Assembly (NCBI RefSeq): GCF_030013595.1
Contig: NZ_CP122768.1
Reading direction: 5' to 3' (one strand)
DNA: 64,000 nucleotides
DNA from: Escherichia coli
Lineage (GTDB): Bacteria; Pseudomonadota; Gammaproteobacteria; Enterobacterales; Enterobacteriaceae
The translations under genes and the position numbers were made by a program. Of the stretch, positions 2,854 to 64,000 are shown one piece after another; the stretch's first letter is position 1; every line of letters begins with the position of its first letter. A model generated the notes under the pieces. It was not told where the DNA came from. It saw only the letters and a list, made by a program, of their open reading frames with translations, and did not search any database.

Positions 2854-3705
2854 TTAACCCGCGTAAGCTGCCAGCATTTCCTGCGCCGCCAGTTTACCCA
2901 ACGCATTCGCTGCGAAAGGACTGTCGCCGGTGAGAACTTTACGGTCCTTATGTACTCGCCCGGTGATGTCGTCATTAATGATGTTCATGCCCATTTTCTT
3001 CAGCTCTTCGCCAAAGTACCAGGTGAGATGACCCGGCATATAGCCTATCTCTGGTGTTTGTTTGTCTGCGGCGTCTGGGAATGCGCAAATGGAATAACCA
3101 TTCAGTGGGTTATCGCCGTGGCGAAGTGCCAGAAAAGCCGCCGGGCCGTGGCAAAGGGAGATAACAAAACGGTCATTTTTGATTGCCCACTGTAAAGCGG
3201 CAGCTACGTCCTGGCTTTCAGGTAAACCAATAAGTGCGCCATGACCACCAGGAACAAAGATTGCTGCATATTCGCTGTCAGCGTTGAGGCTGGCGACAAC
3301 ATCCGCGAGTTTCTTCGGATTGCGGAACAAAGATTTATGCTGCTCAAAGAATGGCATTACTTTTTCATCTTTGTGCGGCATAGCCCAGTATTCAAACTTG
3401 GTCATCAGACCGGAAATGGTCGCCACTTCGAATTCGAAACCTGCAGCGTGGAGATGATACAACGGCAGCAATGTTTCAATCGGATGGTTACCGGTCGAGA
3501 ACAGTTTTCCGTTATCGGTCGGCAAATAACGTTCGTCCGCGGCGATCACCAGAATTTTATGTTTACCGCGATACGGTTTTGGATAGTCCACGCCATCAAG
3601 ATCAGAGACAGGACTGGTATATTGGCTAAGCGAATATTCTGAAGGGAAGAATGCATTATCTTCAGCAATATCGACCTGCGGATTTTTACTTGTTTGAACA
3701 GTCAT
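2854..3705 (-). CDS. hchA: Hsp31 chaperone / glyoxalase III (DJ-1/PfpI family)
   Basis: 283-aa ORF recognised as HchA. Confidence 0.92.
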   Translation of the reverse strand: MTVQTSKNPQVDIAEDNAFFPSEYSLSQYTSPVSDLDGVDYPKPYRGKHKILVIAADERYLPTDNGKLFSTGNHPIETLLPLYHLHAAGFEFEVATISGLMTKFEYWAMPHKDEKVMPFFEQHKSLFRNPKKLADVVASLNADSEYAAIFVPGGHGALIGLPESQDVAAALQWAIKNDRFVISLCHGPAAFLALRHGDNPLNGYSICAFPDAADKQTPEIGYMPGHLTWYFGEELKKMGMNIINDDITGRVHKDRKVLTGDSPFAANALGKLAAQEMLAAYAG

Positions 3706-4295
3706 AGTGTATTCCTTATTGTTGCTTAGTTAGGGTAGTCACTATATTTGCGACTGAGCTGGTCGCTATTTTTAACCAGGCTGGAAAATTGAGTCAATAT
3801 ATCGAAAGCGGTAGTCGTGGGTGTAAGTATGTAATGATGATGCTGCACTGGTGTTGAATATTATTCACGCCAAATTTTCCTTATTGAGCTACGTCGTCGC
3901 AAGTGGCCTCAATGATTTTAGACCATTATCAGAGGTACGGGGCGGCGGGGAGAGATTTAGTGCTGTGGAATATCGTGGTGCTGATGAATATTTATATCCC
4001 GGATTGGCAGAGAAAAAGCTTTTTTCATGCACTATTTTTGCAAATATTTCTATATGGGGGGCGGTTTTGTTGCAGATTAATTCATAAAGAAATGCATTTG
4101 GGTGTTGGCTGGAAGAGACGCTGGTAGATTTTATTGAGCCAGGAGGGGCGGGGTAATGTGCTGTATCGATATGCTTTGGCAAATGCGTGTGCCGCAGATG
4201 GAGATGAAATGCCAATAAAAAAGCCTGAGTTCGATGAGGGACGAACTCAGGCTATTGTTAAGTTTTACAGTAACACGCCGCGGCGCGTTGGCTGA

Positions 4296-5483
4296 TTAGA
4301 ACTGGTAGACTAAGCCCACAGCTACGATATCATCGGTAGCGATGCCGTTTTCTTTGTAGAAGTCGTCGTCGTTGTCCAGCAGGTTGATTTTGTAATCAAC
4401 GTAGGTGGACATGTTTTTGTTGAAGTAGTAGGTCATACCAATATCAACATATTTAACCAGATCTTTGTTGGTGTAATGATGATTGCCCTGGCTGTCGAAG
4501 TTATCACTATTTACACCGCCTAAATCCTTACCTTTAGATTGCAGGTAAGCGATGGACGGGCGCAGACCGAAGTCGAACTGATACTGAGCAACCACTTCAA
4601 AGTTTTGGGTTTTGTTAGCGATCGCATCAGCATCACCGTAACCAGTCATGTTACGGGTTTCAGCATACATAGCTGCTAAGTAAACGTTATTAGCGTCGTA
4701 TTTAGCACCAACGGTCCATGCTTCTGCTGTTTCACCGCCAGCAGTTGCATCGAAGCGATCTCCATAACGAGTGTTATGAGTACCTTTGTGAACCTGATTG
4801 TCGGTACGGTCAGAGTTAGAGTAAGCAGCGCCCAGACTTAAACCAAAGTCAAAGTCATAGGAAGTGGACATACCGAAGCCGTCGCCGTTCTCTTTAGCTA
4901 ACTTACGGCCATTACCGTTACCAGAACCTTCCTGACCGAATAATCCATCATCTTCATTATTACCCTGATATTGCAGAGCAAAGTTCAGGCCATCGACCTG
5001 GCCAAAGAAGCCATTGTTACGGTAGGTTGCAACACCATTAGCACGACCGTTCATGAAGTTGTCGGCACCAGCATAGGTATCGCCACCAAATTCTGGCAGC
5101 ATATCGGTCCATGCTTCGATGTCATATACGACACCGTAGTTACGACCATAGTCGAAAGTACCATTCTGACCAAAGCCTAAACCTGCAAATGCCAGACGCG
5201 TTGCGGTATTACCTTTGTCGCTTTCAGGACCGTTTGCGCCAATGTTAAATTCCCACTGACCATAACCAGTGAATTGGTCAGCGATCTGAGTTTCACCTTT
5301 GAAACCGATACGGGCATATGACATGTCGCCATCGCTGCCAGCATCATCAGAGAAGTAGTGCAGGCCCGCTACTTTTCCGTACAAATCCAGTTTATTACCA
5401 TCTTTATTATAGACTTCAGCCGCATTTGCTGCGCCAGCAACTAATAACGCCGGGACCAGCATTGCCAGAACTTTTCTTTTCAT
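4296..5483 (-). CDS. yedS: OmpC/OmpF-family outer membrane porin, apparently intact
   Basis: ORF 4296..5513; signal peptide from ATG 5483 ([21 protein letters not shown]); porin motifs; C-terminal aromatic residue. Confidence 0.8.
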
Positions 5484-6111
5484 TATGTATTCCCTTGTGA
5501 TTATAATCTTCATGAATATATCAATAAGTGCTGTTATCCAAAAAAAAGCACATTTGGATACTATTCTATGAAGTTCATTTTATTTTAAAGATTACATGTA
5601 ACAAATGTATTTAAAAGATTTCAAAATGTTTCCAATCTGTTTAATATAATTCAGAATTATGAATTCTGAATATAAATATTCACGAATATTATGAATGCAT
5701 ATCAATATGTTATGAGTTGAGCGGAAACATAGGGAGTATCAATGATTGTTGTGCTAAACGGCTGGTGTGATCTCGCGCACATTAATGAAGGCATAAAAAA
5801 AGCCGGCATCATGCCGGCCCAAAAAATATAAACAAGACGATAAAAGGCTAATAACGGAAGCATCATGACACAGAATAATAAAAAGGGATAATTGTAATCA
5901 GTGCTAATATATTGATTGAATGAATTAATAAAGCCGATATCAAAGATAAATAAAATCGCTCAAAACGATTTTTCCTGTATTCACTGCCATTGCGCAAAAA
6001 TTATCTATTTGTTCAAAAAATGATTGAGTCTTGACTGGCTCATCCAATGTGGAAAAATGTGACTTTTATCACATAATAGTACTAAGTCTGAATTTTCCGG
6101 GTTATCTCAAA

Positions 6112-6414
6112 ATGGAATACGGTTCGACAAAGATGGAAGAGAGACTCACTCGCAGCCCTGGTGGCAAATTGGCTTTGTGGGCTTTCTATACATGGTGTGG
6201 CTATTTTGTCTGGGCAATGGCGCGTTACATCTGGGTGATGAGCCGGATCCCCGATGCCCCCGTGTCGGGATTTGAAAGCGATTTAGGCTCTACCGCGGGA
6301 AAGTGGTTAGGGGCACTGGTTGGCTTTTTATTTATGGCTCTGGTCGGGGCATTGTTAGGCAGCATTGCCTGGTACACCCGACCTCGTCCCGCACGTAGCA
6401 GACGCTATGAATAA
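6112..6414 (+). CDS. yedR: inner membrane protein
   Basis: ORF 6031..6414 opens on TTG; first ATG at 6112 (MEYGST); two hydrophobic helices. Confidence 0.7.
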
Positions 6415-6452
6415 AAACTGCTAAGGTTGCGACCCTTGGCAACGGAGCGCGT

Positions 6453-7148
6453 ATGGACGTACAACACTGGCAGGTACAGTTCGAAAACTGGTTGAAAAAC
6501 CATCATCAGCACCAGGACGCGGCCCATGACGTGTGTCATTTTCGCCGCGTCTGGGCTACGGCACAGAAGCTGGCGGCAGATGACGATGTCGATATGCTGG
6601 TGATTTTAACCGCCTGTTATTTTCACGATATTGTGAGCCTGGCGAAAGATCATCCGCAACGGCAGCGTTCTTCAATCCTGGCGGCAGAAGAGACGCGTCG
6701 CCTGCTCCGTGAAGAGTTCGTGCAATTTCCGGCGGAGAAAATTGAGGCCGTTTGTCATGCCATTGCCGCGCACAGTTTCAGCGCGCAAATCGCCCCCTTA
6801 ACAACGGAAGCTAAAATCGTCCAGGATGCGGATCGGCTGGAAGCCCTGGGGGCGATTGGCCTGGCGCGCGTGTTTGCCGTTTCAGGGGCATTGGGCGTGG
6901 CGCTGTTTGATGGCGAAGATCCGTTCGCACAGCATCGCCCGCTGGATGATAAACGCTACGCGCTGGATCATTTCCAGACTAAGTTGCTGAAGCTACCGCA
7001 AACCATGCAAACCGCAAGAGGCAAGCAGCTGGCGCAGCACAACGCGCAATTTTTAGTCGAGTTTATGGCGAAGCTCAGTGCCGAACTGGCGGGGGAGAAT
7101 GAAGGTGTCGATCACAAGGTGATAGATGCGTTTTCACCCGCGGGCTGA
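6453..7148 (+). CDS. yedJ: HD-domain phosphohydrolase
   Basis: 231-aa ORF with HD motif (CYFHDIV). Confidence 0.85.
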
Positions 7149-7214
7149 GCGCGTGGCCCTAAATGGCTGTAATTATGTTAACCTGTCGGCCATCTCAGAT
7201 GGCCGGTTAAATCT

Positions 7215-8633
7215 ATGCAGGAAAATATATCAGTAACCGATTTATACAGCACCGGGAATGCCGCACAGGCAATGCTGGAGAAACTGCTGCAAATTTATGA
7301 TGTTAAAACGCTGGTGGCGCAGCTTAATGGTGTGGGTGAGAATCACTGGAGCGCGGCAATTTTAAAACGTGCGCTGGCGAATGACTCGGCATGGCATCGT
7401 TTAAGTGAGAAAGAGTTCGCCCATCTGCAAACGTTGTTACCCAAACCACCGGCACATCATCCGCATTATGCGTTTCGCTTTATCGATCTATTTGCCGGAA
7501 TTGGCGGCATCCGTCGCGGTTTTGAATCGATTGGCGGACAGTGCGTGTTTACCAGCGAATGGAACAAACATGCGGTACGCACTTATAAAGCCAATCATTA
7601 TTGCGACCCGGCGACGCATCATTTTAATGAAGATATCCGCGACATCACCCTCAGCCATAAAGACGGCGTGAGTGATGAGGCGGCGGCGGAACATATTCGT
7701 CAACACATTCCTGAACACGATGTATTACTGGCGGGTTTTCCTTGTCAGCCATTTTCGCTGGCTGGCGTATCGAAAAAGAACTCGCTCGGGCGGGCGCATG
7801 GTTTTGCCTGCGATACCCAGGGCACGCTGTTCTTTGATGTGGTGCGCATTATCGACGCGCGTCGTCCGGCGATGTTTGTGCTCGAAAACGTCAAAAACCT
7901 GAAAAGTCACGATAAAGGAAAAACGTTCCGCATCATCATGCAGACGCTGGAGGAACTGGGCTATGACGTGGCTGATGCAGAAGATAACGGGCCGGACGAT
8001 CCGAAAATCATCGATGGTAAACATTTCCTGCCGCAGCACCGTGAACGCATCGTGCTGGTGGGGTTTCGTCGCGATCTGAATCTGAAAGCCGATTTTACCC
8101 TGCGTGATATCAGCGAATGTTTCCCTGCGCAGCGAGTGACGCTGGCCCAGCTGCTGGACCCGATGGTCGAGGCGAAATATATCCTGACGCCGGTGTTGTG
8201 GAAGTACCTCTATCGTTATGCGAAAAAACATCAGGCACGCGGTAACGGCTTCGGTTATGGAATGGTTTATCCGAACAATCCGCAAAGCGTCACGCGTACG
8301 CTGTCTGCGCGTTATTACAAAGATGGCGCGGAAATTTTAATCGATCGCGGTTGGGATATGGCCACGGGTGAGAAAGACTTTGACGATCCGCTGAATCATC
8401 AACATCGTCCACGTCGGTTAACGCCTCGGGAATGCGCGCGCTTAATGGGTTTTGAAGCGCCGGGAGAAGCGAAATTCCGCATTCCGGTTTCGGACACTCA
8501 GGCCTATCGCCAGTTCGGTAACTCGGTGGTCGTACCGGTCTTTGCCGCGGTGGCAAAACTGCTTGAGCCAAAAATCAAACAGGCGGTGGCGTTGCGTCAG
8601 CAAGAGGCACAACATGGCCGACGTTCACGATAA
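7215..8633 (+). CDS. dcm: DNA-cytosine C5 methyltransferase (CCWGG)
   Basis: 472-aa ORF; FxGxG SAM motif ([12 protein letters not shown]); catalytic PCQ ([11 protein letters not shown]). Confidence 0.95.
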
Positions 8634-46349: not shown

Positions 46350-46425
<76 letters not shown>

Positions 46426-46479
46426 GTTTAAAAGGCATCGGCGTCAAGCGGATGTCTGGCTGAAAGGCCTGAAGAATTT

Positions 46480-46553
46480 GGCGCGTTAACAAAGCGGTTA
46501 TGTAGCGGATTGCAAATCCGTCTAGTCCGGTTCGACTCCGGAACGCGCCTCCA
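46480..46553 (+). tRNA. cysT: tRNA-Cys (anticodon GCA)
   Basis: ggcgcgttaacaaagcggttatgtagcggattGCAaatccgtctagtccggttcgactccggaacgcgcctcca. Confidence 0.95.
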
Positions 46554-46565
46554 CTTTCTTCCCGA

Positions 46566-46652
46566 GCCCGGATGGTGGAATCGGTAGACACAAGGGATTT
46601 AAAATCCCTCGGCGTTCGCGCTGTGCGGGTTCAAGTCCCGCTCCGGGTACCA
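46566..46652 (+). tRNA. leuZ: tRNA-Leu (anticodon TAA), long variable arm
   Basis: gcccggatggtggaatcggtagacacaagggattTAAaatccctcggcgttcgcgctgtgcgggttcaagtcccgctccgggtacca. Confidence 0.95.
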
Positions 46653-46782: not shown

Positions 46783-47799
46783 TCATTTTCTCTGGCCACC
46801 AACTACGGGCACTACTTTAACTTTTCGGTCATATGCTGCTGTCTGTCGTGGGTTCTTATGCCCGGAAATTGCTTGCTTCTCTTCCAGGCTGCCTTCCAGA
46901 TCAGAGATACCTTTTGCTTTCAGATCATGAAATGTGAAGTCTATTTGCAGATGAGGATATTTTTCCTGTGCTGCCGCTTTGACATCACGCCAACGAGAGT
47001 TAAAACCATCACGGGTGTACTTGCCTCCGGTAGTTTGATGAATCACAAACAGGCTACTGATTCCCGGTTTTAATGGCAGAGAACGAGCCAGAGCTATCGC
47101 TTTCTGCAGACGAGGCGACCAGGCTTTGATTTGCTTAACGCCGGTTTTTCCCTGACGAATGTAGATCCCGGAATCGAACAGCTGGTCTTTCTGTAATGAA
47201 AGTACATCACTCTGTCTGGCCACACATAAGTAGGCAATCTCCATTGCCACGCGAACAACATCAGGAGACACTTCATAAACGGCCTGATATTCTTCATCCG
47301 TAATATAACGTTCGCGTGCTGTCTCTTTAAACTGCTTAACTCCCTGACAAGGATTCCTCTGGACATAACCTCGTTCATAACCCCAACGGAATACCCTGGA
47401 CATAAAGCTTTTTTCCCTATTTGCCTGAGTTCGGCTTGATAAACCGCGTTGATCCATATAGCGCCGAATATGTTCAGGTTTGATTTTATCCGGGTCGATC
47501 TTCCCGAAGACAGGCAGAACTTTTCCGGAATATTTTGTGTAGTCTTTCCTGGTTTCGACTGCCAAATCCATAAAATCAGGGGAGGTCATGAATTGTTCCG
47601 CGAGCGCCTGAAAAGTATTTCTTTCTTTTTCGTCACCGACCGCTTTTTCATATGCCAGCCATACGGCTGATCGTGGCGCATCCAATGCGCACAGGCGTAT
47701 CGCTTTGTTATCTTTATTCCTGAATTCGTAGGCCGCTTTGCCCTGGTAAACACGAGGCGGCATCCAGTTATCTGCTGGGTTCTTTCTCTTTCCGGCCAT
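46783..47799 (-). CDS. int: phage tyrosine integrase
   Basis: ORF 46783..47826; likely start ATG 47799 with GGAG 9 nt upstream; C-terminal catalytic region. Confidence 0.8.
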   Translation of the reverse strand: MAGKRKNPADNWMPPRVYQGKAAYEFRNKDNKAIRLCALDAPRSAVWLAYEKAVGDEKERNTFQALAEQFMTSPDFMDLAVETRKDYTKYSGKVLPVFGKIDPDKIKPEHIRRYMDQRGLSSRTQANREKSFMSRVFRWGYERGYVQRNPCQGVKQFKETARERYITDEEYQAVYEVSPDVVRVAMEIAYLCVARQSDVLSLQKDQLFDSGIYIRQGKTGVKQIKAWSPRLQKAIALARSLPLKPGISSLFVIHQTTGGKYTRDGFNSRWRDVKAAAQEKYPHLQIDFTFHDLKAKGISDLEGSLEEKQAISGHKNPRQTAAYDRKVKVVPVVGGQRK

Positions 47800-48031
47800 T
47801 AAATATTGCTCCAAAATCAGGTTCATCTTCTTTTCGCGTCGTCACCTCCTGTAAATTGCGAAATTTTATTGGGTTCAAGAAATGGCCCCAGGTTGTTTTT
47901 GGGTGCCCGTCAGCCCTTTCCATGAAGAAAATTCCAGCCCGGCGAAGAGCCTCACATTGCTTTGATTTAAGTGGGCTTCCCGTCAGCTCGACCATTTCTT
48001 CTCTGGTGATTATGTCGTGATCGCTTTTCAT
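47768..48031 (-). CDS. small phage protein, DUF4224-like (excisionase-associated)
   Basis: 87-aa ORF overlapping int start, typical xis-like position. Confidence 0.5.
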   Translation of the reverse strand: MKSDHDIITREEMVELTGSPLKSKQCEALRRAGIFFMERADGHPKTTWGHFLNPIKFRNLQEVTTRKEDEPDFGAIFNGRKEKEPSR

Positions 48032-48240: not shown

Positions 48241-48423
48241 TTATTTCTGATTAGGCGTAATCAGTTCTGGTGGGGGGAATGCCGATTTCTCCCGCGTGAC
48301 CTTAATGTTTTCTGGCAGGTGTAGCCCAAGTTCGCAGCGACTCCGTGCTTCAATAATGCCATTGGTACCATCGGCAAGTACCAGGTGAACCGCGTCACCA
48401 CGCTTTAATGTGAGTTTAAGCAT
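48241..48423 (-). CDS. hypothetical phage protein
   Basis: 60-aa ORF abutting next gene. Confidence 0.4.
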   Translation of the reverse strand: MLKLTLKRGDAVHLVLADGTNGIIEARSRCELGLHLPENIKVTREKSAFPPPELITPNQK

Positions 48424-48992
48424 TAGCGTACCCTCAGCGAACGTTCGCCGCGTTCCAGATGTGCGCCTGGTACCGGGTTTAATAACTCGGCTGGTGGTGT
48501 TTCTCCACGCGCCAGTATTTCGGCGGCAACCGCCTCCGCAGATTCAATCACTTCTTTAATGGCTCGCTTGTTTGGTGTAATAACCGTTTCTACATCAACA
48601 AGTGACACGCCTTCATACTCATCCGGGATCTTATCTTTGCTATCGATAATTACCCGGATAGCCCCCTGTGCATCAGTAAATGTGTTTTTTGCGGTTTTTA
48701 GTTTATCCAGGCCAGCAGCTTGCAGGCAGGCGAGCATATGCTTCCGAATTGCTTTTTCCTTGCCTTCAAAGGACGTCTTACGGGTAGCCAGGCGAGACAT
48801 TTCTTCAGCGCAGGTACTGGCATTGCCCTGTAAATTACGGCAGATGACCATCATGGCGTCCAGTTTGTCTCCCAGTTCTCCTTCCATACCTTCAAGCGTG
48901 TCGGCGATCATCTCTGGCGTCAGTTCGTCGGAGGTTTCTAACAGGTCAATCAGACTGGCATATTCTTTTGCAATAGCGATAGCAGTGCTCAT
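48423..48992 (-). CDS. Siphovirus Gp157-like phage protein
   Basis: 189-aa acidic ORF; family assignment from recall, tentative. Confidence 0.5.
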   Translation of the reverse strand: MSTAIAIAKEYASLIDLLETSDELTPEMIADTLEGMEGELGDKLDAMMVICRNLQGNASTCAEEMSRLATRKTSFEGKEKAIRKHMLACLQAAGLDKLKTAKNTFTDAQGAIRVIIDSKDKIPDEYEGVSLVDVETVITPNKRAIKEVIESAEAVAAEILARGETPPAELLNPVPGAHLERGERSLRVR

Positions 48993-51214
48993 GCTGTTTG
49001 CTCCTGTGCTGCGGTGAGGGCGGTGAGGCGTTCGGTTTTGATTTCATTCAAACGGCGCAGGCGCGAACCAAGATAAGTTGAATACTCCTTATCACCTTTG
49101 GATTCTGCGGCCTTGCGGTGAACTTCTACTTCCCGCGCAATAAGGCCATAGACTTTATTAACTTCATTGGGGGTTACGGCTGCAGCCAGTGTTTTGGCAA
49201 CACCTGAGAGTCGTTCATCCAGTTCTTCACGCAGTCGGGTAGCATCCTCTGCTTTCTCGCTTGCCTTCTTAATACTGTATTCTGTATTCAGCTCGGCGGT
49301 GTAGGCACTATCGTTATGCATATCCATATAAACATCTGCCGCAAATCCCAGATGAGATAGTGCTTTGACGGTGGCATCAGTAAGAGACTTTTTGGAGGCC
49401 TCTTTTTCCATTACCAGTGCCCCTTTGTTATTTTTTGATATGTAATCCGTGTGGCCATATGACGGAATAAATCCTTTCACTCCGTTCCAGATGTACCAGA
49501 GATCTATCCGGATGGTGTGTACTGACAGGCAGAACAGGGAACCGTCAGCATCCCTGACAGGTTTTTGTCCAATAATTTTCCCTGTCTGATCCTGTATAGG
49601 TTCAAGTAATGGCACACCGCGATCCACTCGCTCCTCCTTGATTTCAACTCCCCAACCAATGCCTTCCATTCCCAGCACTTCAGTCGCACGCATCAAAATA
49701 TATTGTGCGCGTATGGAGTGCAGTCCTGCACCGTAATCATTATGTGTGACATACGCAGGATCGGTCCGCTGAACGCGATTCCAGATAGCCAAATTTGCTT
49801 TGCTCTGGTCATCATTCATTGCTGACAGATAATGCTCCATGCGAATTGATGCAGTTTTTTCCTCGGCATGGGGCGGCTCAACCAGCGCGTCAACGTTCTG
49901 CACCAGGTCTTTTACCTGCTCGCTAAGTTTTTCTTGTGGAGGAGTCTCTTCTGCCGGGGTAATAGCTGCAGGTTCCCTCTGTGATACGGCGTTATTTTCA
50001 GGTACGTCATACACATGGCGAGGCGTGACAAACTGCTCACGCAACTGCTGCAAACTACGTTCTCCAGCATTTGCTGCTTCGCTTTTTTCGCCCTGATTTG
50101 AGGGTGTTTCTGACATCATTCCATCAATTGAGAATCGCCCGCCGCCGTGGTTGGTGACTTTTACATCATCCTTTGGTGCTGTTTCCTTTGGCTTCTCTTC
50201 AACAGCATTTGCATCACGCTGCCCGTTAGCTTGCAGCCAGTTGTCGATGTGACTGCGCAGGGATTGCGGGAAGTGGTACGTGTCTTTTGCGGGGGCGCTC
50301 TGAATAACACCGAATACTGATGCGCGGTCATAGGCAAGGATCTGATCCGTTGTGCGCAAGGCCATTGACCAGCGTTTAAAATCCTCCCGATCCTGGCTGA
50401 TTATTTCGTCTGCCGCTTTCAGGACGCTGGGGGTGATTTTTTCCGGGCCAACGGGTAACAGGGCGCAGGCAATTTCACGATCCAGTGTGGCGTGAGTCTG
50501 TTGGTAAGGACGTGCGGATGCTGTTTCTGGTTTTACCTCCGGCAGCATTTCATCGCGTTTACCGGGATTCTCTACCCATTTTTTTATAAATTTGGAGATA
50601 GTCCAACTGGTCGGGTTTTGTTCCTGGGTATCGCAACTTGCCAAAATTGCATGTACCAGATTATTCAATCCAGCAATATGCATGTACTCGATGGGCTTAC
50701 ACGCCACCATGGCATCAAGAACGATGCGGTTAAACGCGTCAACCTCATCCTCACTGTCAGTATCACTGTTGTCGAGCATCTCCAGGTATTCACGCGTCTG
50801 CGCAAGCAATTCACTGTCGACTTCGTTGGCGTCGTGGCTGAACAGCAGGACGGCGGCGAAGCGTTCACGAGCCGGCAGTTTCATCAGGTCGTTAACCTGT
50901 GCGATATCTGCTGAACCGCTATCTGAATCAGCGGGGGTGTTAACTACCCATTTTTCGCCATCAAAACTGTGTTCTGTGGCAAACGTCTCATCAAACTCAC
51001 CGACGCCAGGGCGCGGTTGGCCCGGGGCATCTTCCCAGATTTTAGGTTTGAAATAGTTGTCGCCGTGGTCAGGGTAGGCTTCCCACAATTTGCCGATGAT
51101 GATGTTCTCGGCAACTTTTTTGTTAGGGGCGTCGATGGCGATGGCCAGCGCCGGGATCGCGCCGTTTTTGAGCGCGCCTTTTTTCGCTTCTAACAAGCCG
51201 TTAAAGATGGTCAT
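48989..51214 (-). CDS. large phage protein: acidic N-terminal region fused to Rad52-like single-strand annealing domain
   Basis: 741-aa ORF; C-terminal FCLSVHTIRIDL...SYGHTDY...KALSHLGFAADVY resembles Rad52/Sak core. Confidence 0.55.
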   Translation of the reverse strand: MTIFNGLLEAKKGALKNGAIPALAIAIDAPNKKVAENIIIGKLWEAYPDHGDNYFKPKIWEDAPGQPRPGVGEFDETFATEHSFDGEKWVVNTPADSDSGSADIAQVNDLMKLPARERFAAVLLFSHDANEVDSELLAQTREYLEMLDNSDTDSEDEVDAFNRIVLDAMVACKPIEYMHIAGLNNLVHAILASCDTQEQNPTSWTISKFIKKWVENPGKRDEMLPEVKPETASARPYQQTHATLDREIACALLPVGPEKITPSVLKAADEIISQDREDFKRWSMALRTTDQILAYDRASVFGVIQSAPAKDTYHFPQSLRSHIDNWLQANGQRDANAVEEKPKETAPKDDVKVTNHGGGRFSIDGMMSETPSNQGEKSEAANAGERSLQQLREQFVTPRHVYDVPENNAVSQREPAAITPAEETPPQEKLSEQVKDLVQNVDALVEPPHAEEKTASIRMEHYLSAMNDDQSKANLAIWNRVQRTDPAYVTHNDYGAGLHSIRAQYILMRATEVLGMEGIGWGVEIKEERVDRGVPLLEPIQDQTGKIIGQKPVRDADGSLFCLSVHTIRIDLWYIWNGVKGFIPSYGHTDYISKNNKGALVMEKEASKKSLTDATVKALSHLGFAADVYMDMHNDSAYTAELNTEYSIKKASEKAEDATRLREELDERLSGVAKTLAAAVTPNEVNKVYGLIAREVEVHRKAAESKGDKEYSTYLGSRLRRLNEIKTERLTALTAAQEQTA

Positions 51215-51244: not shown

Positions 51245-51565
51245 TTAGTAGGGGATTTCATCAGTATCTGGCGTGTATTCGATGCAAAGTAACTGCTGGA
51301 TTTTGTCATCGATAGCAGCAATACGCTGTTGGGCGTCGGCGACTGTTTTCTGTTTTTGCTCATACAGCTGCTCGACCTGCAAACCGATGATGTCGATTGG
51401 CTGGGGCTGGTTGACGGTAATTTCAATTTCGCGGCTTTCCAGAAGGATGTACCTGTCTGGAAAATTTTTTGACATATCAACAGTCGCAACAAGCAGCTTT
51501 TCGTGGCTGAAAGTTGAAGTTGCATAATTAATAAAGAGTGTTACTGGGATGGTGCGCGCTTCCAT
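51245..51565 (-). CDS. hypothetical phage protein
   Basis: 106-aa ORF with AAGGAG RBS. Confidence 0.5.
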   Translation of the reverse strand: MEARTIPVTLFINYATSTFSHEKLLVATVDMSKNFPDRYILLESREIEITVNQPQPIDIIGLQVEQLYEQKQKTVADAQQRIAAIDDKIQQLLCIEYTPDTDEIPY

Positions 51566-52561
51566 AGCGACTCCTTGGTGATGTATACTCGGGACCGATC
51601 AGCGAATATTGATCAGCTTCCATAGCGTCAGTGTCGTTGGTCTTTCCTCATCACAAGTTTGGTCACTTGTGATAAATCCGAATGGTTTGGTCGCCGTTCG
51701 GGGTAACTGGCCCGCCTTGTGCGGGTCTTTTGCTATCTAAAGGGTGCCGGTTACGTTTCCGGCGTCGTTATGTTTCCATCACGACCGTACGGGGCTGGTC
51801 TTTCCTGTTTTGAGCTGGTCAGGCTCATGGTCAACGCTGGTCAGGCGTGGTACTTCCTCCGGTCTTTCCCTGGTGTCACGCTGCGGGTTTGGCCTCTCCT
51901 GTTGGGGACTCAGGCACAGCGATAAAACCTGGCTGTGTGAAAAAATGGCCCATCGTGCGGACTGGGCAAAGGCTAAACACAGCAAATTGATGATGGGCGC
52001 CCGGAATCGAACCGGGTAACGGGCAGGGAGTTCCCGTTAAACACCTGTTCACCACAACCGGGAGCGCACTCCGCCATTTCAAAATTTAACGACAAAGCTC
52101 AAAGTTGAGTCGATGAAGTGCGCTCTCGTGTTGTAGCCAGGACTCTTCCCTGGTGGTCACACCGTATCGCCTTGATGGTGAATCAATCGCTCATACCTGG
52201 CTGTGGCTTGCACATTCCGGCTAGCTGCTATGGAGACAACGCGTTAAGGCTCCGCTTCCATCCAGACCGCTTCGACACATGTGCCATATGCCGGCGAAGT
52301 CTTTCCCTCTGTCATCGTGTTGGCGCCGACGCGCAAAATTTGATGCCGTCTTTCCGGCTGTCAGAACGTGTTTCTGAACAACTGCCGCTGGGTAAGCGTT
52401 GTTGATGAAAGTGACTTTACAATTTGTATTTGTAATGGTCAACGTATTTTTAAAAAATAATTTGTAGTTAGGGGCAAAAAAATATTCACTGTGTAAAGGT
52501 GTTTTTGTGTTAGGGGGAAAGTTGCATGCCAGCAGCGGCTGGCCTGGAAATTTGAACTGAA

Positions 52562-52975
52562 CTATTTTGTCTGGTTTTTGGCTTCAAGTAGTTCTTTTAG
52601 CAGTAGATCGAAGTGCTCTCTTTTTTCTTTTAGCTCATTGATTAATTTATTTTTTTCGCTCTCAGGCAGTCCTCTGAATAGTTGCAGTAGAGCCTGTTCT
52701 TGCGGGGTTAGTTCTTGATTGTAATTACCCGGGTGTAGCGTGGATTCATCCAAATATTCACCTTCATTCATGAAGAAAAAATGAACAGGGTATCCGGTCA
52801 CTTTTGCTAGCTTGTCTAATTTATCTTTTCTTGGAGTTACCCCATTACACCATGCCTGAACTGATTGAGCCGTAACCCCAATATGGCGAGCTAACTCAGA
52901 TTGAGACCAGCCTAAGTCTTTTAGAATCCGTTGTAGTCGGCTAGCAAAAGCCATGTTTTTCGTTTTTGTGTTCAT
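52562..52975 (-). CDS. phage repressor-like HTH protein (cI-like)
   Basis: ORF 52562..52990 opens on TTG; HTH (GWSQSELARHIGVTAQSVQAW); divergent from cro-like gene; start uncertain. Confidence 0.7.
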   Translation of the reverse strand: MNTKTKNMAFASRLQRILKDLGWSQSELARHIGVTAQSVQAWCNGVTPRKDKLDKLAKVTGYPVHFFFMNEGEYLDESTLHPGNYNQELTPQEQALLQLFRGLPESEKNKLINELKEKREHFDLLLKELLEAKNQTK

Positions 52976-52994
52976 ACCGTAAGGATACAAGGTT

Positions 52995-58649: not shown

Positions 58650-58976
58650 ATGACTAAAAATACTCGTTTTTCCCCCGAAGTCCGTCAGCGGGCGATTCGT
58701 ATGGTTCTGGAAAGTCAGGATGAATATGACTCACAGTGGGCGGCAATTTGTTCCATTGCCCCAAAGATTGGCTGTACGCCGGAGACTCTGCGTGTCTGGG
58801 TTCGCCAGCATGAGCGGGATACCGGGGGCGGTGATGGTGGGCTCACCAGCGCTGAACGTCAGCGTCTGAAAGAGCTGGAACGTGAAAATCGTGAACTGCG
58901 CCGCAGTAACGATATCCTTCGCCAGGCTTCCGCTTATTTTGCGAAGGCGGAGTTCGACCGCCTCTGGAAAAAATGA
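58650..58976 (+). CDS. IS3-family transposase OrfA
   Basis: 108-aa [25 protein letters not shown] recognised as IS629/IS1203 OrfA. Confidence 0.9.
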
Positions 58977-59863
58977 TGCCACTGCTGGATAAGCTGCGTG
59001 AGCAGTACGGGGTCGGACCGGTATGTAGCGAACTGCATATTGCCCCGTCAACGTATTACCATTGTCAGCAACAGCGACATCATCCGGATAAACGCAGTGC
59101 CCGTGCGCAGCACGATGACTGGCTGAAGAAAGAGATACAGCGCGTATACGATGAAAATCACCAGGTATACGGTGTGCGTAAAGTCTGGCGTCAGTTGTTA
59201 CGGGAAGGTATCAGAGTGGCCAGATGCACTGTGGCACGTCTCATGGCAGTTATGGGACTTGCCGGTGTTCTCCGGGGTAAAAAGGTCCGCACTACCGTCA
59301 GCCGGAAAGCCGTTGCCGCAGGCGACCGCGTAAACCGTCAGTTCGTGGCAGAACGACCTGACCAGCTGTGGGTGGCTGATTTTACTTACGTCAGCACATG
59401 GCAGGGCTTCGTCTATGTGGCGTTTATCATTGATGTGTTTGCCGGATACATCGTGGGGTGGCGGGTCTCATCGTCTATGGAAACGACATTCGTGCTGGAT
59501 GCGCTGGAGCAGGCGTTGTGGGCCCGTCGTCCGTCTGGCACCATCCATCACAGCGATAAAGGCTCTCAGTATGTGTCACTGGCCTATACGGAGCGACTAA
59601 AAGAAGCCGGATTACTGGCATCAACAGGGAGTACAGGCGACTCGTATGACAACGCGATGGCTGAGAGCATCAATGGTCTTTACAAAGCGGAGGTAATACA
59701 CCGTAAGAGCTGGAAAAAACGTGCAGAAGTGGAACTGGCCACACTAACGTGGGTGGACTGGTATAACAATCGACGATTGCTGGGAAGGCTGGGCCATACT
59801 CCTCCGGCAGAAGCAGAAAAAGCTTATTATGCTTCCATCGGAAACGATGATCTGGCAGCCTGA
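58973..59863 (+). CDS. IS3-family transposase OrfB (DDE integrase-like)
   Basis: 296-aa ORF overlapping orfA in -1 frame. Confidence 0.9.
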
Positions 59864-59905: not shown

Positions 59906-60680
59906 ACTCTTTTTTCTTCGCCGGGGTTAACTTGCTCCAGACGGTATTCAAATCAGAGTCAGCATTTGCAAATGCCATTCGGGACTGATCAAGGCTTTCA
60001 GATTTTTGCGGCTGAAGTTGTGCCTGCCTCTCTTTTTGCTTCTCCGCCTCATACCTGGCCTGTTCCTGTGCCCTGAGTTGCACCTGTTGTTCCGCTTCAA
60101 TTTGACTCTGTTGGGCATCCTTAGCCTGCTGGATTTTCTGCTGCTCAACGATCGGGTTGATAATGGAAAGCGATGTCAGTAAAGCGGCGCCCACTGATAT
60201 CGGATTATCAGAAGAGGTTTTTACAAAAACGTTTTTCTGATCGTCGGTCGCCTGCACGGTGTAGGTGATACGCCTTGAAAAGGCGTTTGCGTTGTTCTCC
60301 AAAAACAGATTTTCCATTTGCTTATCGAGATTACGATTAAAATTCTTTCTGTAAGCATCTGAAAGCTGGACGTACTCGTTCGCAGGTAGAGTCATCGTCA
60401 CGGTCCCTTCACAAGTTTTCATTGTGCTGCCCGTGTCACTTGATGTTGTGGAGATTTCAGAGACGGCTAGTTTGATCTTGTCCAGTGTGCTTCGTTTGGT
60501 CTGATTAGTGACATCAGGGTATTTATCGACCTGTTCAGAGAGTCCTTCATAAGCAGATTTTTTTAATAAATCCATGAGAGCTGATTGGGTCATTTCCGAA
60601 GAACAACCGATCTCATCTTTTTTGTTATCACAGCCTGTAAGGGCAATGGCGAGTAAGAGTACTGAGTATTTTAATCTCAT
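59906..60680 (-). pseudogene. 5' fragment of lipoprotein gene split by IS629
   Basis: ORF 59670..60680 has lipobox LTGC; after codon 258 it reads into the IS629 right end. Confidence 0.7.
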
Positions 60681-61436
60681 GAATTCCCTTTAGAGTAAGG
60701 ATTGGTTTTTAAGACGCGGTCTGTAATCAGTTCCGAGAGCTACAGTAAACAACGCTGAGCACTGAACGCATCACAGGCAAGGTAAAAGGTGATATCGGCA
60801 AAGGCTGTGAAACCTTTAATTCAACAGATGGGAACGGTATGCACAGGATCCTGTAACGACGCTCCCAAAACTGGAAACCTGTAAGGCATGTTTTCGCTGC
60901 TGAACTTAATATACGAACCTGCACTATCATGAACATATTTTATATCGTTATACCCCGAGTGATTGTGCCCGGCAATGGATAGTGTCCTGGAGGAATTATT
61001 TCTAATGTAAAAGGAAGATATTTAATTTCGATGTGGGATTATTACCTGTCTATAAGAACAATGACTTTATCTGGCAGTAAGCAGACATCTATTAGCTTAC
61101 TGAAGGGGGGCTGTGATTTGACCATTAACGGCATGAGATATATTGTCTATTGGTGATTGTTCTGAGGCCGATATCACGTTAACGACCAAGTAAAATAACA
61201 TGAAAAATTATTTATTAATGATTGCCAGCATTAAATGTAGTGATACCTCATTAGCAGGGTGCTCCGCAATGACTGCGATGAACTAAAAAATCAGTCATAA
61301 CCATGAAAAAAACAAGTGTATCAGCGAAATTAAATCTGGTGAAAGCATTTAATTACTTGTTAATGACGCAATAAAAACATACTATGGAAATGTAACAGCT
61401 AATCTACAGTTCTTGTCAATAGGGGCGCACAAGAAA

Positions 61437-62027
61437 ATGTTAAATGAATTTAAGGAAAAGCTACTATCCGACGATATCCGCGATGTCTACCAACGATACC
61501 TTTTAGGACATGACATCTGGTATTTTCGGGAACAAAAAAAATCAATAACCTTTGCTAAAGATTATGATGAGTTTAAGCTATATATGTCTAAGAAGCTTGA
61601 AATTCATGTAAATAATATTGCAATTGTTGGAAGTGCTAAGATGGGATTCAGCTTGAGCCCTGATAAAAATTATCGAACATTTAACGATGAGTCAGATATA
61701 GACTTGGTTTTAGTATCCGACAGAATTTATAAATCTTCCTGGATGGCATTTATTGAATTACAATCAAAGAATTATTTGCCTGTATATGCTCCTGTAGCTA
61801 AAAATATTTTCAAAGGATTCGTGTCATTGAAGGAGTTAGATATTAGAGTCGATTTTTTTAATAAATGGTCCCGTAACGTTGAACCATTAAAAAAAGACAT
61901 TCAAACTATTTTTGGAATACCTAACGACATCAACTACAGAATTTATGACTCTTGGGAGTCCGTTGAACGCTATCACATAGCTGGGTTGAATAGTCTAAAA
62001 GATAAGTTACAAGGACAATTGATATGA
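61437..62027 (+). CDS. small Pol-beta-superfamily nucleotidyltransferase-like protein
   Basis: ORF 61413..62027 opens on TTG, first ATG 61437; IVGSAKMGFS...ESDIDLVLV fits the GS...DxD pattern; low GC; stop overlaps next start (ATGA). Confidence 0.65.
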   Translation: MLNEFKEKLLSDDIRDVYQRYLLGHDIWYFREQKKSITFAKDYDEFKLYMSKKLEIHVNNIAIVGSAKMGFSLSPDKNYRTFNDESDIDLVLVSDRIYKSSWMAFIELQSKNYLPVYAPVAKNIFKGFVSLKELDIRVDFFNKWSRNVEPLKKDIQTIFGIPNDINYRIYDSWESVERYHIAGLNSLKDKLQGQLI

Positions 62028-63082
62028 GAGCTATTGATCTAATTAAAGTTGAATCGAAAGACATTAAATGGTTGACGGATAATTTGAAATCAGGTGTTAT
62101 TACAGTTGATAATTCATATCAGAGAAAATATATCTGGCAGCAAAAAGACCAAGTGGCCTTAATTGAGACAATATTAATTGGCTACCCAATCCCTGAGATT
62201 TACCTTTGGGCAAATAATACTGATCCTGACACTGGAGATACTAAATATTCAATTGTAGATGGACAGCAAAGGCTAACCACAATCCAGCGATATTTAAATG
62301 ATGAGTTTAAGTTAAGCAAAGCAGCTATAGATGATAAAGAAGCCGACTATAGTGGGAAAATTTTTTCAGAATTGTCGGCAGATAACAAACGTGATTTTTG
62401 GCGATACCAATTCTCATCCAGATTTATTAATGAATCATTGAGATATGATGAGATTGCAAAGTTATTTTTACGTCTAAATAGAACAAATACTACGTTAAAT
62501 CCTCAAGAACTTCGTAATGCTGAATTTAATGGCGAGTTTTTAAGATTAGCCGAAGAAATTGCACAAAATGAATTTTGGGATAATTATAAGATATTTACTC
62601 AGTCAGATATCCGTCGGATGCAAGACATTCAATTCATCAGCACATTATTGATTTTCTTACGAATGGGTATTGAGCAGGATAATACACAAAAATCAATTAA
62701 TCGAGTGTATGATCAATACAATGAGAATTACCCTGAGGCGACTGAGGACAGAATTATCTTTAACGAAGTGTTAAGGATCATATCTCAAATTATCAACAAT
62801 AAACAAGTATTAGAATCAGTTGTAAAGAAAAAAGGCCATTTGTATTTTATATTTGTGCTGGCATACTATTATTTACAGCTTAGTAAATCTAAGCTTGTTG
62901 ATATGAATGTTATTAGTTCAAAGCTCGAGGATTTTTTTAATATTTATGAGTTAAATGAACAAGATAACCCCCATCCACTGGTTGAGGAATATAGATTCCT
63001 CAGCCAAGAGGGTTCAAAGAAGAGTCATAACAGACAGCGTAGATTTGATATTTTGAAAGAATTTTGCTCTTTACATGATTAA
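62024..63082 (+). CDS. DUF262 (ParB-like, GmrSD N-terminal type) protein; no recognisable nuclease domain
   Basis: 352-aa ORF with YQRKYIW and IVDGQQRLTT motifs; helical C-terminal half without HNH/DUF1524 motifs. Confidence 0.75.
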   Translation: MRAIDLIKVESKDIKWLTDNLKSGVITVDNSYQRKYIWQQKDQVALIETILIGYPIPEIYLWANNTDPDTGDTKYSIVDGQQRLTTIQRYLNDEFKLSKAAIDDKEADYSGKIFSELSADNKRDFWRYQFSSRFINESLRYDEIAKLFLRLNRTNTTLNPQELRNAEFNGEFLRLAEEIAQNEFWDNYKIFTQSDIRRMQDIQFISTLLIFLRMGIEQDNTQKSINRVYDQYNENYPEATEDRIIFNEVLRIISQIINNKQVLESVVKKKGHLYFIFVLAYYYLQLSKSKLVDMNVISSKLEDFFNIYELNEQDNPHPLVEEYRFLSQEGSKKSHNRQRRFDILKEFCSLHD

Positions 63083-63182
63083 ATGACGAAAGTGGGTTGT
63101 TTATAAGAATTGAATAAACAACCCATCATTTTAATGTACTCTGAATCCTCTCATTCTTAGTGAAATATTGTTTTTAGAACAC

Positions 63183-63374
63183 GTATTGACGTTAGAACAA
63201 AAAATAGATTTTTTTGTGATGTATTACGTTGGAGTTGATGGGATAATTATATGTTTTCAATACATTGTTAATTTATCAAGACCCTGCGACTAAGGTGTTC
63301 GAAAATCGACTAAAGTCTGTTTCATAGAGAGAGTTACTTGCGTTTAAAAAGGTATTTGGTCACGACCAACACGA
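63183..63374. repeat. right copy of diverged ~200-bp direct repeat (decayed copy of 3' end of 57950..58207 gene)
   Basis: Aligns to 58114..58310; reading frame broken by stops and indels. Confidence 0.7.
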
Positions 63375-63603
63375 GGCCGAATACCTCAGTTTAAGTACCG
63401 CTCATGTACAACAGTAACGTTTGCTGATAGTGTCGCATTATCTTGCAGAGGACGCAGGTTAAATAGAACAAGCATATGTACCTGGTTTTTGTAATATTGG
63501 GTATAACATATGCTTTATAGGAGCGCGCTCAATGACCAACCGAGAAAGAATCTCCTGACAGATACAGTTATTTTCACCCTCTCCATAACATAAGGGAGTT
63601 TTT

Positions 63604-64000
63604 ATGTCGGAAGTGAGTATCGTAGAAGACGCCCCACGCCCAGTAGTCGCCGAATTGGCAGATCTGTTACAAGCACAACCATTTCATCAGAATCAATATG
63701 ATAACTTATGTCGCTTTATGATTTATTTTTCCCTGGCTGAATCAAAGTTAACATCAATGGCTGCTGGCCTTGGTAGAACTGACGCACTGGCACAGGAACT
63801 GGTTGTGCATAACGGCATGGACAGTCAGACCATAGATGATTGCTATCGTTATTTTATACGACGCTATCGAGACAGCCCTGATAGCGATTACCGCTTCAAT
63901 AAACTGGCCCCGCCTGAGTATGTTAAGAATGCAATCAGAGAACGCTTTGTTACGCTACTTCAGATACAGTCTCCAACAATTGAAGATAAAATCAGCTTTG
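63604..64000 (+). CDS. hypothetical phage protein, 3' end beyond window
   Basis: Open frame from ATG 63604 (MSEVSIVEDAPRPVVAELADLL) with AGGGAG RBS, no stop before window end. Confidence 0.5.
   Translation, partial: MSEVSIVEDAPRPVVAELADLLQAQPFHQNQYDNLCRFMIYFSLAESKLTSMAAGLGRTDALAQELVVHNGMDSQTIDDCYRYFIRRYRDSPDSDYRFNKLAPPEYVKNAIRERFVTLLQIQSPTIEDKISF

Follow-up and report, generated by a model that had tools for sequence, protein, structure and literature searches.

The 741-aa gene and its C-terminal domain

We analyzed a 64,000-nucleotide (nt) stretch of the Escherichia coli contig NZ_CP122768.1 (the window), which carries a prophage inserted next to pgsA and three clustered tRNA genes. Our analysis focused on a prophage gene of 741 amino acids (aa), located at 48989..51214 on the minus strand. 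It is a single uninterrupted open reading frame (ORF) that encodes, from the N-terminus to the C-terminus, a RecE/YdfE-type module, an acidic linker, a predicted Rad52-fold annealase domain and a helical tail. The product is probably a prophage recombination protein, namely a predicted single-strand annealing protein (SSAP) of the Rad52 superfamily. The gene starts at GAGGAAAGACCA-ATG, which provides a good Shine-Dalgarno sequence, with GAGG 8 nt upstream of the ATG. The initial annotation of this DNA had described the first ~450 residues as acidic, and the composition bore this out: aa 1-450 have an isoelectric point (pI) of 4.77, with 75 D+E to 46 K+R, and the C-terminal 291 residues have a near-neutral pI of 6.1.

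The same annotation had likened the C-terminal third to the Rad52/Sak annealing fold. We modeled the C-terminal domain with AlphaFold2 (AF2) from an alignment of its family, and the model reached a pLDDT of 94.5 and a pTM of 0.81. The core (aa 459-635; 49310..49840, minus strand) consists of N-terminal helices, a long beta-sheet with a hairpin, and the conserved helix EASKKSLTDATVKALSHLGF with its basic residues K608, K609 and K617; this arrangement corresponds to the beta-sheet/hairpin and helix core of RAD52 and Mgm101. It is followed by a three-helix bundle (aa 636-741; 48992..49309, minus strand) with AF2 helices at 636-678, 682-706 and 709-740 (pLDDT >87). This bundle, which stand-alone family members also have, is well conserved (mean majority-residue frequency 0.61). 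An independent full-length model was then compared by Foldseek with the PDB, where RAD52 chains were the sole significant matches (E 5e-5 to 2e-4, probability 1.0), and with BFVD, where the matches included proteins named 'RAD52-like DNA recombinase', 'Rad52/59/22', SAK3 and Erf.

An exhaustive profile search placed aa ~465-741 in a family of 4605 representatives (E<=1e-3), most of which are stand-alone proteins of 240-290 aa, with ~30 long forms of 670-815 aa. Among 120 sampled members of this family, 45 matched PF04098 (Rad52_Rad22) at E<=0.1, the best at 3.1e-6, and 14 did so at E<=5e-4, a level at which no other Pfam family was matched. The homolog from Vibrio phage VvAW1 scored 17.5 bits against PF04098. 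The link to PF04098 was made through family members because neither the whole protein nor its C-terminal fragment had a Pfam match. The expected placement of the C-terminus by profile search was therefore obtained for the family, with the protein itself missing PF04098.

Several results weigh against the annealase assignment. Pfam gave no family at E<=1 for the 741-aa protein and no match for the 291-aa C-terminal fragment, and the protein does not reach the PF04098 gathering score (20.3 bits); a phmmer search of it against PDB sequences was likewise without a significant match. The family profile matched RAD52 sequences no better than E ~2. On the supporting side, it aligned in register with RAD52 residues 49-159, although this alignment is not significant by itself (E 2.2). 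The signature helix EASKKSLTDATVKALSHLG there pairs K617 with R153 and T612-D613 with T148-D149, and K608, K609 and T612-D613 are conserved. We take R55, K152, R153 and R156 to be the basic residues of the inner groove of RAD52 that binds single-stranded DNA (ssDNA). V616 lies opposite K152 and S620 opposite R156, so this groove appears to be only partly conserved. Comparison by hhalign with a 30-sequence ul36 Sak alignment (all PF04098) gave a probability of <1% and an E of 0.13, with the conserved helix alone aligned. For the three N-terminal domains D1-D3 described below, Foldseek gave no significant match in PDB or BFVD with the full-length model as query. Finally, end protection rather than annealing is the reported function of some Rad52-fold proteins, DdrA among them.

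The family profile was also compared with the single ul36 Sak sequence, again without significance (E 0.4), and membership in the Sak subfamily was rejected on these profile-profile comparisons. The Rad52 part of the initial assignment thus stood, by AF2, Foldseek and the family members on PF04098, and the Sak part did not. Taken together, the models support the prediction that the C-terminal ~280 residues form a Rad52-fold annealase-type domain with a helical tail. Based on structure and on the PF04098-matching family members, we place it in a divergent branch of the Rad52 superfamily linked to PF04098, outside the Sak subfamily proper.

Like the Rad52/Sak SSAPs (PF04098, with the human RAD52 N-terminal domain and ul36 Sak; Mgm101 is a structural relative), the 741-aa protein carries the signature helix (E/K)A.KK(S/A).TDA.K(K/R)AL...G and is encoded by a phage in an early recombination/replication region. 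It differs from them by a 458-residue N-terminal extension and a C-terminal three-helix bundle. The stand-alone members from Pseudomonas phages PMG1 (gp54) and F116 (p19) and from Vibrio phage VvAW1 (gp29) share the Rad52-like domain and the helical tail at 31-36% identity, whereas they are ~250-270 aa long and lack the N-terminal module.

The 741-aa locus was found in 462 of 5426 complete E. coli genomes (~8.5%) at a block identity of 95-100%, and the gene also occurs across many enterobacterial prophages. RefSeq names its copies 'hypothetical protein' or 'exonuclease family protein'. In two E. coli strains from pigs (NZ_CM149870.1 and NZ_CM149862.1), an insertion of ~1.3 kb, annotated as an IS3-family transposase, interrupts the 100%-identity match, so that these hosts have a disrupted recombination module.

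N-terminal module, linker and fusion architecture

The N-terminal part was modeled as three domains, all on the minus strand. D1 (aa 1-92; 50939..51214) is an alpha/beta domain of YdfE_N type with a pLDDT of ~90, D2 (aa 107-226; 50537..50896) is helical with a pLDDT of 68-92, and D3 (aa 234-337; 50204..50515) is helical with a pLDDT of ~90. An acidic disordered linker (aa 338-458; 49841..50203, minus strand; pLDDT 30-46) follows and contains short conserved motifs, one of which is VTNHGGGRFSIDGM (aa 353-366).

The initial annotation had recognized no motif in the first ~450 residues, a statement that sequence comparison overturned. D1 is 34% identical over aa 20-88 to YdfE of E. coli K-12, the product of a Qin pseudogene (E 3e-8). 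A longer stretch, aa 18-331, which includes D2, aligns at 25% identity (E 1e-18) with the 823-aa 'exonuclease VIII' encoded by phage Tritos, over residues 20-339 of the latter. D3 also occurs in Rac RecE (about aa 261-370): the NCBIfam model NF007259 (exodeoxyribonuclease VIII) matches aa 232-336 at profile positions 261-370 (E 8.8e-13), and phrog_607 and phrog_2082 match the same stretch. BLASTP against RecE aligned residues 243-308 to 263-332 (E 0.013), with nothing significant past aa 332. Precomputed matches to PF27430 (YdfE_N) and PF27432 (YdfE_C) are on record for N-terminal homologs (50-97% identity) and for two full-length homologs, P0042 and P0021. A full-length profile found nothing for the N-terminus among PDB sequences. 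These alignments show that aa 1-337, predicted to fold as three domains, share homology with the N-terminal parts of RecE-like 'ExoVIII' proteins and with YdfE.

We then examined conservation among 26 long forms. At >=85% conservation, aa 1-337 hold just four alanines, compared with 81 positions in aa 459-741, and none of the conserved positions in aa 1-337 is acidic, histidine or otherwise polar. Because no polar residue is conserved there, the N-terminal module would be a scaffold or adaptor rather than an enzyme. In the linker, the motif LGxG[RK]FS[IV][DE]GL occurs in most long-form homologs and resembles SRGEFVDGI of RecE. Further motifs (SNQGEK, GYGVYA and IVAxACG, and in some homologs ERTGPFY...GRANK) are distributed as a mosaic among the long forms, and ERTGPFY...GRANK is also present in the Tritos protein. 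The occurrence of linker motifs in Rac RecE and in the DEDD-type protein of Tritos suggests that they may be shared peptide docking sites.

The initial annotation had left open whether the long N-terminus reflected a fusion or a missed internal start. The evidence came down on the side of a fusion. Across ~30 representative clusters at 28-47% identity, long forms stay collinear with the query over its whole length, and of the 80 closest viral loci, 75 encode the long form. The ratio of nonsynonymous to synonymous substitution rates (dN/dS), calculated against an allele of 97.7% identity, was 0.15 for D1-D3 and 0.58 for the linker (small counts), and D1-D3 is, by this estimate from few differences, under purifying selection. 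The competing explanation, that there are two genes or that an annealase of ~280 aa starts near Met459 with the upstream 450 codons separate or mis-called, draws on the stand-alone state of most family members (240-290 aa), on the position of Met459 at the domain boundary and on the long disordered linker that parts the halves. We regard it as highly improbable. The frame is continuous and collinear across those divergent clusters and viral loci, a good ribosome-binding site (RBS) precedes the annotated start, and the N-terminal domains fold confidently and appear to be under purifying selection. No usable RBS precedes Met459, where GAGG lies 20 nt upstream and thus not at a usable distance; a scan for internal RBSs and starts gave weak motifs only, at codons 388, 530 and 602, and the domain boundary had none. 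A start within the gene near Met459 was accordingly rejected on the missing RBS and the conserved collinear architecture. The sequence data support a true fusion as the nature of the 741-aa protein, rather than a missed start or two genes, and a short isoform in addition to the 741-aa product is possible.

The exonuclease label, the Gp157 partner and the proposed role

Databases label the 741-aa protein as an exonuclease, and a true RecE/ExoVIII-like enzyme that resects ends of double-stranded DNA would fit several observations. PHROG 2489 ('exonuclease') matches its full length, the NCBIfam exodeoxyribonuclease VIII model matches aa 232-336, some RefSeq copies are annotated 'exonuclease family protein', and the gene occupies the position of recE in Rac. 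We nevertheless give this explanation very little credence. The similarity to RecE is confined to a non-catalytic region (about aa 261-370), no PD-(D/E)XK, DEDD or other nuclease Pfam domain was detected in the protein, the significant PDB fold matches are to RAD52 only, and aa 1-337 lack conserved acidic or histidine positions. In addition, PF06630 ('Exonuc_VIII') maps to aa 3-194 of the homolog P0019 and not to a nuclease domain.

P0019 (814 aa; 5001-7445 of locus L009) matches PF06630 over that stretch with an E of 4.6e-77 and has a Rad52-like C-terminus and a Gp157 neighbor. RecE carries its nuclease domain at residues 564-866, and no function is known for the N-terminal domain of RecE (PMC11611040). 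Judged by these matches, the PF06630 model describes the non-catalytic N-terminal domain of RecE and not a nuclease, and its name may spread 'exonuclease' labels to proteins that lack one. The C-terminus of the 823-aa Tritos protein carries a DEDD Rv2179c-like 3'-5' exonuclease domain (PF16473, E 2e-67), and the middle regions of RecE and the Tritos protein are 40% identical. Since Tritos, RecE, P0019 and the 741-aa protein combine their N-terminal and C-terminal modules differently, these modules are, on domain content, combinatorially shuffled among RecE-type, DEDD-type and Rad52-type proteins. The 'exonuclease' labels given by PHROG 2489 and PGAP appear to be inherited from the non-catalytic N-terminus. 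This reading corrects a widespread label, as the sole recognizable functional domain of a gene called exonuclease or hypothetical is of the predicted Rad52 annealase type.

Compared with Rac RecE, the 741-aa protein has the same operon slot in a Rac-like prophage, domain D3, a similar linker motif (GRFSIDGM, resembling GEFVDGI of RecE) and an overall design as a large protein with a long non-catalytic N-terminal part before the functional C-terminal domain. It lacks the PD-(D/E)XK nuclease domain, as the NF007259 match ends at position 370, and has an annealase fold instead. RecE has its own PF06630 domain, whereas the 741-aa protein has D1 and D2 of YdfE/Tritos type, and recT lies downstream of recE, whereas a Gp157 gene lies downstream here. 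The Tritos/Qin-type 823-aa 'ExoVIII' shares the D1-D3 module over ~320 residues and is likewise encoded in an early-left operon beside xis/int, but its C-terminus is a DEDD 3'-5' exonuclease, distinct from the RecE-type nuclease, and no Gp157 gene follows. In the ~8-kb region around the Tritos gene (3375-5846 of locus L005), no annealase gene is annotated. The K-12 ydfE pseudogene (6079-6999 of locus L099) is cut by IS2E and looks like a truncated 5' remnant of a Tritos/Qin-type gene.

The gene directly downstream encodes a 189-aa protein of the Sipho_Gp157 family (48423..48992, minus strand; PF05565, E 2.5e-28). The junction, GCATGAGC, is an ATGA overlap with AGGAG 9 nt upstream, an arrangement that shows, at the level of sequence, translational coupling of the Gp157 gene to the 741-aa gene. 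Of the viral loci, 79 include enough downstream sequence, and in all 79 a Gp157 gene lies directly downstream on the same strand, usually with an overlap of 4 nt or 1 nt. A Gp157 gene also follows the family member in PMG1 and in loci L008, L009, L011 and L014, with PMG1 and P0077 as stand-alone examples. In lactococcal phage ul36, by contrast, Sak is followed by a gene for a single-stranded DNA-binding protein (SSB), and in VvAW1 a DUF1351 protein and then a DEDD exonuclease replace Gp157 downstream. In a survey of SSAPs in Firmicutes, genes for Gam, DUF1351, DUF2483 and Gp157 were interchangeable neighbors of Erf modules (PMC8093625). The 189-aa protein also matches phrog_253, whose label, 'Mu Gam-like end protection', could not be confirmed, as Pfam gave PF05565 alone and no sequence relative was found in the PDB. 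The pairing with an SSAP gives the uncharacterized Gp157 family a concrete functional context, and the Rad52-like SSAP and Gp157 form a strictly conserved, translationally coupled two-gene unit that is a candidate recombineering tool.

According to Pfam, PHROG and the annotation, none of the genes from the CI-like repressor to the integrase encodes a nuclease domain, and the SSAP gene has no cognate exonuclease gene beside it of the Red-alpha/beta or RecET type. This absence, together with the seemingly partial conservation of the basic groove (V616 opposite RAD52 K152) and the unconfirmed PHROG label of Gp157 as a Mu Gam-like end protector, is what could be expected of a Rad52-fold protein that is no recombinase. 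Such a protein might, in the manner of DdrA, bind ssDNA ends to protect them or to start replication, or it might act as a decoy or trigger against host defenses that sense recombinases; phage recombinases are reported as targets of defense systems and satellites (PMC11846896). We consider this unlikely. The characterized Rad52-fold proteins that were matched, RAD52 and Mgm101, are annealases, the BFVD matches bear annealase-type names (Sak3, Erf), and the gene occupies the slot that lambdoid early-left operons classically devote to recombination. Moreover, SSAP modules without an exonuclease of their own are well known, with P22 Erf as an example.

In the annealase model that we favor, the Rad52 domain would oligomerize, bind ssDNA in its basic groove and anneal complementary ssDNA at resected ends or replication forks, a role that would serve phage recombination and replication, genome repair and the formation of mosaics. 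Because the operon encodes no nuclease, end resection that generates the ssDNA would be performed by host enzymes. Gp157 may protect or handle DNA ends. The helical tail, by analogy with the C-terminal domain of Redbeta, would serve as a partner-binding domain. Lambda Redbeta and P22 Erf are likewise built from an annealing core and a distinct C-terminal region that binds partners, and Erf, like the 741-aa protein, has no dedicated exonuclease (compare PMC11611040). Both belong to other SSAP families, and both lack a large N-terminal module and a disordered acidic linker.

For the N-terminal module and the linker motifs, we tentatively propose a non-catalytic adaptor that docks the effector to a partner or substrate common to RecE-type and DEDD-type proteins. 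It would deliver an annealase here and, in sister prophages, a PD-(D/E)XK nuclease (RecE) or a DEDD nuclease. That the YdfE/RecE-type module and the motif-bearing acidic linker make up a portable targeting or regulatory adaptor, interchangeable on a PD-(D/E)XK 5'-3' exonuclease, a DEDD 3'-5' exonuclease and a Rad52-type annealase, is a possibility that we hold with considerable doubt. Its interest lies in RecE: if it is true, the N-terminal ~600 residues of RecE would act independently of the nuclease, for example by docking to the host replisome, SSB, an end-processing factor or DNA ends, and the annealase fusion with its obligate Gp157 would be a nuclease-free recombination system suited to dissecting adaptor function. 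Full-length RecE enables linear-linear recombineering (PMC11611040). The pairing of part of the RecE N-terminal region and of Tritos-type N-terminal domains with varied C-terminal effectors offers a comparative route to the role of the RecE N-terminus. The parts themselves, a Rad52-superfamily SSAP, the RecE N-terminal region and Gp157, are known. The searchable literature on Gp157, YdfE, the RecE N-terminus and fused Rad52-like SSAPs contained no description of the fusion architecture, the strict pairing with Gp157 or an interchangeable RecE/YdfE adaptor; PMC7430833 matched through the strain name 'Sakai' alone.

Operon and prophage setting

The leftward region is headed by a CI-like helix-turn-helix (HTH) repressor gene (52562..52990, minus strand; Pfam HTH_3 and Phage_CI_repr). 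From there, the order is a 106-aa gene, the 741-aa gene, the Sipho_Gp157 gene, a 60-aa gene, a DUF4224 excisionase-like gene and a tyrosine integrase gene. The 106-aa gene (51245..51565, minus strand) matches phrog_2479 (E 2.4e-50) and has no Pfam match; a homolog is annotated at the same position in the homologous prophage L001. The 60-aa gene (48241..48423, minus strand) matches phrog_2482, and a gene is annotated at the same position in L001 and L004. The DUF4224 gene (47768-48031, minus strand; Pfam PF13986, PHROG excisionase) and the tyrosine integrase gene (46783-47826, minus strand; Pfam PF00589) together (46783..48031) mark the left end of the prophage, which the three tRNA genes adjoin (46350-46649). 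An Rfam scan of 45.5-54.5 kb found nothing besides these three tRNAs.

Neighboring divergent genes match YdaS_toxin and YdaT_toxin in Pfam, and the rightward set consists of YdaS-like, YdaT-like and DnaB-like genes. Because of the divergent YdaS and YdaT genes, we classified the prophage as Rac-like lambdoid. In Rac, the slot between the CI-like repressor and xis/int, which is that of the 741-aa gene here, is occupied by recE-recT.

The same recombination module is present at 97.7% identity in L001 (NZ_CP134380.1, strain TUM11353), where the prophage lies beside tRNA-Ser and mtfA. As this site differs from the pgsA/three-tRNA site, the module moves between prophages that integrate at different sites. 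A stretch of ~1 kb (51566-52561) that separates the 106-aa gene from the CI-like repressor gene contains no genuine-looking ORF of at least 80 aa and no Rfam match, and it is also empty in the RefSeq annotation of L001. It could hold small genes, promoters or a small RNA.

Two further features were observed toward the right of the window. An IS3-family insertion sequence lies inside the prophage at 58650-59863, with an HTH_Tnp_1 orfA followed by an rve orfB. The stretch 60000-64000 has a low GC content (36-39% vs ~50%), with ORFs at 61413-62027 and 62024-63082 and a restriction-like GmrSD_N (DUF262) gene, and is probably a defense moron or an island within or beside the prophage.

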